Of a stretch of 64,000 nucleotides of DNA, positions 25,577 through 25,673 are shown in pieces. Numbering within the stretch: the stretch's first letter is position 1; each line of letters begins with the position of its first letter. The position numbers and the translations under genes are program-made. The notes under the pieces were generated by a model, which saw nothing but the letters and a program-made list of their open reading frames with translations, searched no databases and had not been told where the DNA came from. Location of the stretch: NCBI RefSeq assembly GCF_003334355.1, contig NZ_QOWP01000012.1, one strand, 5' to 3'. This DNA comes from Escherichia coli (lineage in GTDB: Bacteria; Pseudomonadota; Gammaproteobacteria; Enterobacterales; Enterobacteriaceae).

Positions 25577-25673
25577 GCCTGATGCGGCGTTAACGCCTTA
25601 TCCGGCCTACAAAGTCCTGCAGATTCAATATATTGCAGGTACTGCGTAGGCCTGATAAGCGTAGCGCATCAGG
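25577..25673. repeat. RIP/BIME-type repeat (two REP units flanking an A/T-rich IHF-like core) between convergent ybiU and ybiT
   Basis: gcctgatgcggcgttaacgccttatccggcctac ... attcaatatattgcag ... gtaggcctgataagcgtagcgcatcaggc; near-identical copy at 50904..51001. Confidence 0.8.

Follow-up and report, generated by a model that had tools for sequence, protein, structure and literature searches.

The repeat family treated here is already known, having been described in 1991–1993 in its best-studied host. The name RIP ('repetitive IHF-binding palindromic') is said to come from Oppenheim et al. 1993 and the name RIB from Boccard and Prentki 1993, and Rudd's catalogue of K-12 repeats reportedly enters such elements as 'RIPnnn'. 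Under the name BIME-1, the element is defined as a Y-type REP, a long L linker and an inverted z1-type REP, found as a single copy at an extragenic site (Ton-Hoang 2012, PMC3333891; Nunvar 2010, PMC2817692). RIP copies are transcribed and are hard to distinguish with probes (2009, PMC2773258).

The window, a 64,000-nucleotide stretch of Escherichia coli DNA, is K-12-like and agrees in gene order and positions with NC_000913, as the reverse complement of approximately 819–883 kb of MG1655, where the two loci treated below fall near 832.3 kb and 857.6 kb. An initial annotation marked two near-identical RIP-type elements (REP–IHF core–REP) in it, at 25577..25673 and 50904..51001, here called A and B, and placed both at convergent gene junctions. 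Both elements are present at these positions and in these junctions, and the RIP-type identity is correct: their architecture is that of the published BIME-1 definition. In the matching stretch of the current RefSeq MG1655 record, no repeat_region features are listed.

Elements A and B and their parts

When compared with the three E. coli REP types as given in Durrant 2024 (PMC11208160), A divides into a Y REP, 35 nt of linker and a z1 REP in inverted orientation, and B follows the same order. In both elements the CTAC...GTAG ends of the two REPs face the linker, with GTAG at 25646–25649 in A and 50973–50976 in B. Element A occupies the gap between ybiU (+ strand, ending at 25494) and ybiT (− strand, ending at 25735), and element B that between ybiA (+ strand, ending at 50822) and rhlE (− strand, ending at 51054); each gap holds one extragenic unit and no tandem array. 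Because the REP types, the CTAC/GTAG ends facing the linker and the single extragenic copies fit the published definition, we assign A and B to BIME-1/RIP. Both loci are 100% identical in many phylogroup-A genomes, K-12 strains included. The parts of the two elements and of their surroundings are as follows.

25547..25697, + strand: element A, full BIME-1 unit (flank, Y, L, inverted z1, flank); in the 75-copy family consensus, conservation is at background beyond these limits
25547..25575, + strand: left outer flank of A, TCAGATTGCTGACAAATGCGCTTTGTTAA, inverted partner of the right flank; 60–88% column conservation, pairs with 25675–25695 in the predicted fold
25576..25610, + strand: Y-type REP of A, a variant with GCCTGAT for GCCGGAT at its 5′ end; 2 mismatches to the reference Y
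25611..25645, + strand: L linker of A, with a 5-bp TGCA(G/A)/TTGCA palindrome and the IHF-like ATTCAATATATTG at 25623–25635; core pattern search
25645..25674, − strand: z1-type REP of A, bearing the natural IS621 target ATCAGGCCTAC on the − strand; 0 mismatches to the reference z1
25675..25697, + strand: right outer flank of A, TATTTTGCATTTGTCATCAGCCG; family conservation
25698..25726, no strand: locus-specific GC-rich hairpin CCGTCACCCCGA cagta TCGGGGTGACGG, in the interval from element A to the stop codon of ybiT; sequence, fold and terminator scan
50873..51026, + strand: element B, full BIME-1 unit between ybiA and rhlE; sequence, alignment and family consensus
50903..50937, + strand: Y-type REP of B; 0 mismatches to the reference Y
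50938..50972, + strand: L linker of B, with the IHF-like ATTCAATATATTG at 50950–50962; core pattern search
50972..51001, − strand: z1-type REP of B, with the IS621 target ATCAGGCCTAC; 0 mismatches to the reference z1
51027..51047, no strand: locus-specific hairpin ATGCCGGGC ata GCCCGGCAT, in the interval from element B to the stop codon of rhlE; sequence

The likeness between A and B is greatest in the centre of the linker. The 64 kb contain the core TGCARATTCAATATATTGCAG at two places only, 25618–25638 and 50945–50965, and shuffled sequence has no match to it even when 3 mismatches are allowed. The two cores are identical at 20 of 21 positions. Both core strings quoted in the initial annotation exist, but they had been exchanged: A carries the form beginning cagattc and B the form beginning caaattc. 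The description 'near-identical' holds for the core but not beyond it, as 25/35 positions agree over the whole linkers (an ungapped hand count) and 88/99 (89%) over the 97–98-nt elements, and the variable linker positions beside the core differ between the two. The location of the elements had been given correctly but their extent too narrowly, since the conserved unit reaches approximately 30 nt further to the left and approximately 25 nt further to the right.

The L core TGCANATTCAATANATTGCA was used to scan for the family in one genome per species, and the taxonomic range of the matches listed is a lower bound. The matches listed fall in E. albertii, E. whittamii, further Escherichia lineages, three Pseudocitrobacter genomes, one Citrobacter MAG and tiny contaminant contigs; isolated matches in unrelated phyla have no REP arms and were set aside as chance. 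The 73 non-tandem copies among the matches listed (Escherichia and Pseudocitrobacter) were aligned with A and B, giving 75 in all. All 73 have the order, orientation and outer flanks seen in A and B. The 20-nt core of A and of B equals or nearly equals the consensus of the 73, and the core columns are at least 90% conserved. Outside the REPs, the alignment contains a Y-side flank of approximately 30 nt (consensus TCAGATTGCTGACAAAGTGCGCTTTGTTCA) and a z1-side flank of approximately 25 nt (consensus AATTTTGCGTTTGTCATCAGTCTCA), each 60–88% conserved per column and each an imperfect inverted repeat of the other; past them, conservation in the 75-copy consensus falls to background. These conserved inverted flanks define a unit of approximately 155 bp (25547–25697 in A, 50873–51026 in B). 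These outer flanks would be the motifs that Gilson et al. 1991 reportedly named external 'A' and 'B'. Searched by blastn with the L consensus, E. coli genomes contain a median of 27 L motifs, ranging from 8 to over 40; in 1,112 records, K-12 derivatives among them, the number is at least 40. With at least 40 copies in approximately 4.6 Mb, two or three copies per 64 kb are unremarkable.

The 20/21 identity of the cores, together with a likeness that continues into the flanks beyond the REPs, might suggest that A and B share a special history, two loci 25 kb apart being linked by a recent event of duplication or gene conversion. The family alignment makes this extremely improbable. Over 25577–25673 and 50904–51001, the identity of A and B is 0.876, against a family median of 0.866 (73 copies among the matches listed), and random pairs of family copies, many of them from different species, match or surpass that value in 49% of cases; over the full unit the identity is 0.815, a value that 25% of random family pairs equal or exceed. 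Both values lie at the family median, and the likeness of the flanks is common to the whole family. At least 22 copies in other genomes equal or exceed B in their similarity to A, and at least 55 equal or exceed A in their similarity to B. The linker positions near the core differ, and B is nearer its E. albertii orthologue (0.959) than A. By sequence, A and B are no more alike than any two copies of the family. Their resemblance is a family resemblance, and the observation in the form originally given matters very little.

Both E. albertii (L007) and Escherichia sp. MOD1-EC7003 (L110) have an orthologue of element B, flanked as here by ybiA and rhlE. Identity between B and the E. albertii copy is 95.9% for the core region, 93.6% for the full unit and approximately 89.7% for the flanking coding DNA, so that B is at least as conserved as its neighbouring genes. 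This single comparison fits either constraint on the element or homogenisation among copies. Overall, A and B are very probably two independent, old copies of the enterobacterial BIME-1 (RIP/RIB) repeat.

The window contains further repeats of these kinds. A third related BIME, marked by the initial annotation at 37561..37659, proves to be a BIME-1 as well, at 37561–37660 and 83–86% identical to A and B. Two 'simpler REP clusters' placed at 18821..18900 and 45629..45749 are Y + z2 units of BIME-2 type. The first of these is mostly absent from MG1655, and the moeB/fsaA gap of the window is 103 bp longer than that of MG1655, so the window does not come from MG1655 as such.

37561..37689, − strand: element C, a BIME-1 of opposite orientation in the gap of the co-directional pair glnQ/ybiO; alignment and REP typing
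37561..37590, z1; 37591..37625, diverged L; 37626..37660, inverted Y; then the Y-side outer flank to approximately 37689: parts of element C
18817..18900, no strand: BIME-2-type unit (inverted z2 + Y) in moeB/fsaA, outside the RIP family; REP typing, Rfam naRNA4 at 79.6 bits
45629..45752, no strand: BIME-2-type cluster (inverted Y, z2, degenerate inverted Y) in ybiJ/hcxB; REP typing, Rfam naRNA4 at 78.4 bits

Folding, protein binding and transcript ends

As RNA, element A and its adjacent hairpin are predicted to fold into one long imperfect hairpin, of −93.3 kcal/mol (z = −9.5) on the + strand and −98.1 kcal/mol (z = −8.0) on the − strand. In the predicted fold, flank pairs with flank and Y arm with z1 arm, leaving the L motif at the tip; single-stranded DNA of the unit would fold likewise. 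Published roles of REP and BIME RNA are protection from 3′ exonucleases and help with 3′-end formation (PMC3333891). A role of A and B as mRNA 3′ stabilisers, as suggested by the initial annotation, is plausible given the very stable predicted fold and the lack of an intrinsic terminator in the two gaps. Transcripts from either convergent gene would meet a very stable hairpin which, judging from the family literature, would stop 3′-to-5′ exonucleases and favour formation of transcript 3′ ends.

Two other ways of reading these structures bear on what the gaps encode. Very stable folds on both strands, the location at convergent 3′ ends and the lack of any other terminator in either gap would all suit bidirectional intrinsic (Rho-independent) terminators serving the convergent gene pairs. 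Each gap contains only the repeat and one locus-specific GC hairpin (25698–25726; 51027–51047) as structures, yet no hairpin is followed by a T-tract on either strand and a terminator scan finds no intrinsic terminator in either gap. A genome also has dozens of such elements, one of which, element C, lies at a co-directional junction, and the published effects of REPs and BIMEs on termination are described as Rho-linked or as RNA stabilisation (PMC3333891; PMC2817692). We regard intrinsic termination by A and B as exceedingly unlikely.

The linker cores also score as a small RNA. Rfam RF02751 (ES036) matches A with 41.6 bits (25611–25653) and B with 43.3 bits (50938–50980), both above the gathering score of 37.6, and would make the cores small RNA genes (ES036/CssrF) to which the REP arms are incidental. 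The 43-nt model, however, coincides with the L linker plus GTAGGCCT, and hence with the repeat itself, and neither gap contains a sigma-70-like promoter. Across the 75 copies the 5-bp stem is invariant and the outer stem has essentially no covariation, with paired fractions of 0.19–0.59 compared with 0.21–0.52 after shuffling; in the match to A, the NC line of Infernal marks four outer-stem positions without standard pairs. With dozens of copies per genome, reads from one copy map to all. A literature search for ES036/CssrF returned nothing relevant. We consider small RNA genes very unlikely here and treat the ES036 matches as the repeat captured by an RNA model. For annotation, both gaps are repeat DNA, not unique regulatory sites or sRNA genes, and reads, probes and Rfam matches (ES036, naRNA4) at these gaps are ambiguous across dozens of loci.

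The initial annotation also proposed sites for IHF and gyrase. A scan of the cores for the strict IHF consensus WATCAANNNNTTR gives no match; the one-mismatch form ATTCAATATATTG, which agrees with the consensus at 12/13 positions, is present in both cores, but at chance level, the window holding 69 one-mismatch matches against 53 expected. IHF binds the BIME-1 linker (Ton-Hoang 2012, PMC3333891; Nunvar 2010, PMC2817692), and it is this published family work, rather than the consensus match, that makes the L motif, which A and B carry almost unchanged, a probable IHF-binding site on duplex DNA. The IHF ChIP-seq paper of Prieto 2012 does not discuss REPs. The proposal of a gyrase site fits the BIME-2 units of the window better than A or B, as higher gyrase affinity and in vivo cleavage are published for BIME-2; strong binding and cleavage in vivo are assigned to that class (Hsu et al. 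2006; Sutormin et al. 2019).

Rearrangement of the two junctions in E. coli populations

The natural target of IS621 is ATCAGGCCTAC, with a CT core (Durrant et al. 2024, PMC11208160), and it lies on the − strand of both z1 arms. A survey of the ybiU/ybiT gap across 5,426 complete E. coli genomes found at least five states. About half of the genomes have the full element A (2,687 cover at least 80% of the 751-nt query). In strain 28RC1, A has lost 73 bp exactly between the GCCTGAT direct repeats at 25578–25584 (in the variant Y) and 25651–25657 (in z1), leaving a single z1 REP and both outer flanks; this deletion allele is of the O157 type. Strain EC361 represents a third state, in which IS621 lies directly after the GTAG of the z1 arm. 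In B2 strains, ST131 for example, ybiU is absent, the element is degenerate and strong similarity to K-12 sets in at the left border of the Y arm. In the fifth state, there is no element A and the neighbouring genes are different.

To count the IS621 state, we used a junction query composed of unique ybiU-side DNA, the element and 80 nt of IS621. It was covered to at least 80% in 1,079 genomes; among sampled rows, matches were full to approximately rank 700 and came from another locus by approximately rank 1,045, which places IS621 in element A in roughly 700–1,050 of the 5,426 genomes. In element B, IS621 follows the GTAG at the same base as in A in strains EH53 and 503025; a count of genomes in this state is confounded, since junctions of IS621 with other RIP copies reach 81% coverage of the query. 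The insertion point fits ATCAGGCCTAC in these elements. Other changes at the B locus meet the edge of the unit or remove it: in strain 43905, ybiA is replaced by a ParE/PaaA2 toxin–antitoxin pair and similarity resumes at 51026, the right end of the unit, so that the strain has neither element B nor ybiA yet keeps the B-side hairpin, and O157:H7 has espX2 in place at the B locus and no element.

The suggestion that these elements are recombination hotspots is therefore borne out by IS621 in both z1 arms, the 73-bp deletion in A and breakpoints at element edges. Because the z1 arms carry the IS621 target and IS621 uses it in natural isolates, A and B are real rearrangement hot spots. The z1 arms of A and B are natural landing sites of the bridge-RNA recombinase IS621, one of them occupied in about one-sixth of sequenced E. 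coli.

The 73-bp deletion may have arisen through RAYT action, as its junction CC|TGAT resembles the TnpA_REP 'iREP I' site (PMC3333891). The second site, however, lies in a REP-oriented arm and is not among the cleavage sites of that paper, and slippage between the 7-bp GCCTGAT repeats explains the loss equally well.

Terminator hairpins around family copies and relation to described elements

At 20 of the 75 copies (among the matches listed), the same locus-specific terminator hairpin stands just outside both ends of the unit, with 12–29 matched nucleotides. Matches of this length exceed the 99th percentile of permuted left/right pairings, and exact matches of at least 9 nt occur at 16/75 copies compared with 0.9% in controls. 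Two loci illustrate the pattern. At yccJ/agp, E. coli J53 has one hairpin, ACTCCCCCGCTTCTCGCGGGGGAGTTTTC, and in E. coli 1919D3 and E. whittamii the 29-nt ACTCCCCCGCTTCTCGCGGGGGAGTTTTC stands on both sides of a unit of approximately 153 bp. At torZ/cmoB, the site is empty in E. coli AF23 and filled in E. coli 24A16CRGN010 and E. whittamii, with AGCGCCCGGAAACGGGCGCTAAATT duplicated; in K-12, a BIME-1 lies at the same hairpin in the opposite orientation, without a second hairpin copy. A T-rich tract follows the z1-side hairpin copy at 13 of the 20 duplicated copies, and an A-rich tract also precedes the Y-side copy at 10 of the 20. Many of the targets are thus bidirectional terminators, and no orientation specificity can be claimed. 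The length of the duplication tracks that of the hairpin, which disfavours a transposase with a fixed stagger.

One tentative reading is that BIME-1 is, or recently was, a mobile element of approximately 155 bp with inverted ends that inserts at intrinsic-terminator hairpins and duplicates the whole hairpin; we consider this possible but doubtful. Speculatively, the duplication could arise if an extruded cruciform were cut with a stagger across its base, or by template switching at the hairpin. A and B each adjoin a locus-specific hairpin on the z1 side, and across their ends there is no direct repeat of at least 6 nt that would mark a target duplication, so an origin of A and B by insertion would follow from the other copies of the family. 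The duplicated hairpins of those related copies suggest that the family inserts, or persists, at terminator hairpins, which may account for the position of A and B at gene 3′ ends. If BIME-1 is indeed mobile in this way, A and B would be old, decayed insertions beside the ybiT and rhlE hairpins, and their location at convergent junctions would be explained.

Excisions of 'a whole BIME-1' among natural isolates were reportedly described by Bachellier et al. 1997, so that presence/absence polymorphism of BIME-1 at least is already known. The literature searched contained no description of the hairpin duplication. If it is unpublished, the duplication bears on the old open question of how BIMEs spread and is the one result here worth passing on.

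Several described elements share parts of this architecture. Like miniature inverted-repeat elements with an IHF site (the Neisseria Correia element, ERIC), BIME-1 has a length of approximately 150 bp, terminal inverted repeats, a long RNA hairpin, an IHF-type site and a preference for gene 3′ ends, and some copies of the family have flanking direct duplications. By eye, 13/16 positions are shared between the terminal repeat TCAGATTGCTGACAAAG and the reverse complement of the right end, TGAGACTGATGACAAAC. The BIME-1 duplications differ from those of a MITE in being whole terminator hairpins of 12–29 nt and not a fixed short target duplication, and A and B have no target-site duplication of the kind a MITE assignment calls for. 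No cognate transposase with ends matching BIME-1 is known, and BIME-1 is not known to be moved by TnpA_REP. The window has no RAYT gene, and the genes annotated in the corresponding part of MG1655 include no RAYT/TnpA_REP gene. In vitro, TnpA_REP cuts iREPs of the y, z1 and z2 types (PMC3333891).

REPINs, which are REP doublets mobilised by RAYT/TnpA_REP, resemble A and B in having two inverted REPs around a spacer, a fold into one hairpin and a conserved GTAG; A and B differ from them in their unlike arms (Y and z1), long conserved spacer and additional conserved outer flanks. REP doublets have been called 'analogous to E. coli BIME-1' (Nunvar 2010, PMC2817692). For Rfam RF02751 ES036 (CssrF), the linker cores of A and B lie above the gathering threshold, but the model describes the linker of the repeat. 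BIME-2 shares with A and B the Y REP, the GTAG/CTAC ends and an extragenic location. It has a z2 REP, short S/s/l/r linkers, tandem arrays and strong gyrase sites and is the source of naRNA4, whereas A and B have z1 arms, a 35-nt L linker with an IHF-type core and single units, and are not members of BIME-2. The closest described system is BIME-1/RIP/RIB itself, with which A and B share the Y REP, the L linker with an IHF-type site, the inverted z1 REP, the single copy, the extragenic location and the position at gene 3′ ends; nothing essential differs, and the conserved unit delimited here is approximately 55 nt longer than the 97–98 nt marked by the initial annotation.

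Insertion and deletion within individual BIME-1 units

Natural isolates carry IS621, a bridge-RNA recombinase element, inserted directly after the GTAG of the z1 arm, in element A (the BIME-1 unit between ybiU and ybiT) and element B (that between ybiA and rhlE) alike. Across a set of 5,426 complete genomes from E. coli, roughly 700–1,050 carry the insertion in element A.

Arms targeted by IS621 and insertion records
25645-25674, z1 arm of element A
50972-51001, z1 arm of element B
L003:3395-4660, IS621 insertion record
L128:2877-4147, IS621 insertion record

Element A has also lost sequence. 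In strain 28RC1, exactly 73 bp are missing between both GCCTGAT repeats, leaving a single z1 REP (window 25578-25657 versus L002:900-960), and about 270 genomes carry this deletion, an estimate based on its presence in 2 of the 40 rows sampled at even intervals. The deletion junction, CC/TGAT, is similar to a cleavage motif of TnpA_REP; simple slippage accounts for the loss equally well.

Terminator hairpins duplicated around BIME-1

In other genomes, the whole locus-specific terminator hairpin (12–29 nt) is directly duplicated on both sides of BIME-1 units. Among 75 copies, comprising A, B and 73 aligned units from Escherichia and Pseudocitrobacter, the flank duplication exceeds the 99th percentile of permuted controls in 20, and its length rises with that of the hairpin. 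At yccJ/agp and torZ/cmoB, the same site is empty in some E. coli and filled by BIME-1 in others; at torZ/cmoB, the K-12 unit sits at the same hairpin in reverse orientation.

Records of empty and filled sites
L072:3095-3350; L130:395-647; L129:395-465, yccJ/agp site
L087:3260-3530 (minus strand); L133:320-562; L131:320-390; L132:320-520, torZ/cmoB site

Lineage differences and repeat annotation

The gene neighbourhood of both elements differs by lineage. ybiU, which adjoins element A, is missing in ST131/B2, and a GH31/MFS pair adjoins ybiT in strain B25FEP; ybiA is replaced by a ParE/PaaA2 toxin–antitoxin pair in strain 43905 and by espX2 in O157:H7 (variable-neighbourhood records L004:2940-3180, L126:2360-2540, L127:1880-2520 and L005:2800-3010). 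In two cases, the edge of the BIME-1 unit marks the start or stop of strong K-12 similarity.

The window also differs from MG1655, which is not its source. Its moeB/fsaA gap holds a complete z2+Y BIME-2 unit (18808-18985), whereas a 103-bp deletion in NC_000913 cuts the z2 REP short after ...GATAAGACGCG (L001:39306-39380).

The Rfam models naRNA4 (RF02564) and ES036 (RF02751) pass the gathering score at every BIME-2 unit or BIME-1 linker, and in effect amount to repeat annotation.

Rfam matches in the window
18820-18897, minus strand
45632-45702, plus strand
25611-25653, plus strand
50938-50980, plus strand

Among the matches listed, perfect enterobacterial BIME-1 also appeared in very short contigs (261–720 bp) and in a 3.9-kb Collinsella MAG contig. 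These records (L043, L069, L094 and L120, labelled Desulfosporosinus, Methylobacterium, Alkalicoccobacillus and Collinsella) probably reflect Escherichia contamination of those assemblies.

Conservation, copy number and tandem arrays

Element B shares 93.6–95.9% identity with its E. albertii orthologue (window 50873-51026 versus L007:6300-6520), and the flanking ybiA and rhlE coding DNA about 89.7%; in this single comparison, the element is at least as conserved as its neighbouring genes. Recognizable motifs of the L linker number from 8 to more than 40 per E. coli genome (median 27), an about five-fold spread, with at least 40 in K-12-like strains and 21–28 in the sampled O157:H7 and O145 genomes. 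BIME-1 as described is single-copy, but one Escherichia lineage deviates from this arrangement: Escherichia sp. MOD1-EC7003 carries entire Y-L-z1 units in tandem arrays of 4–8 copies (L109, L112, L113, L117 and L118).
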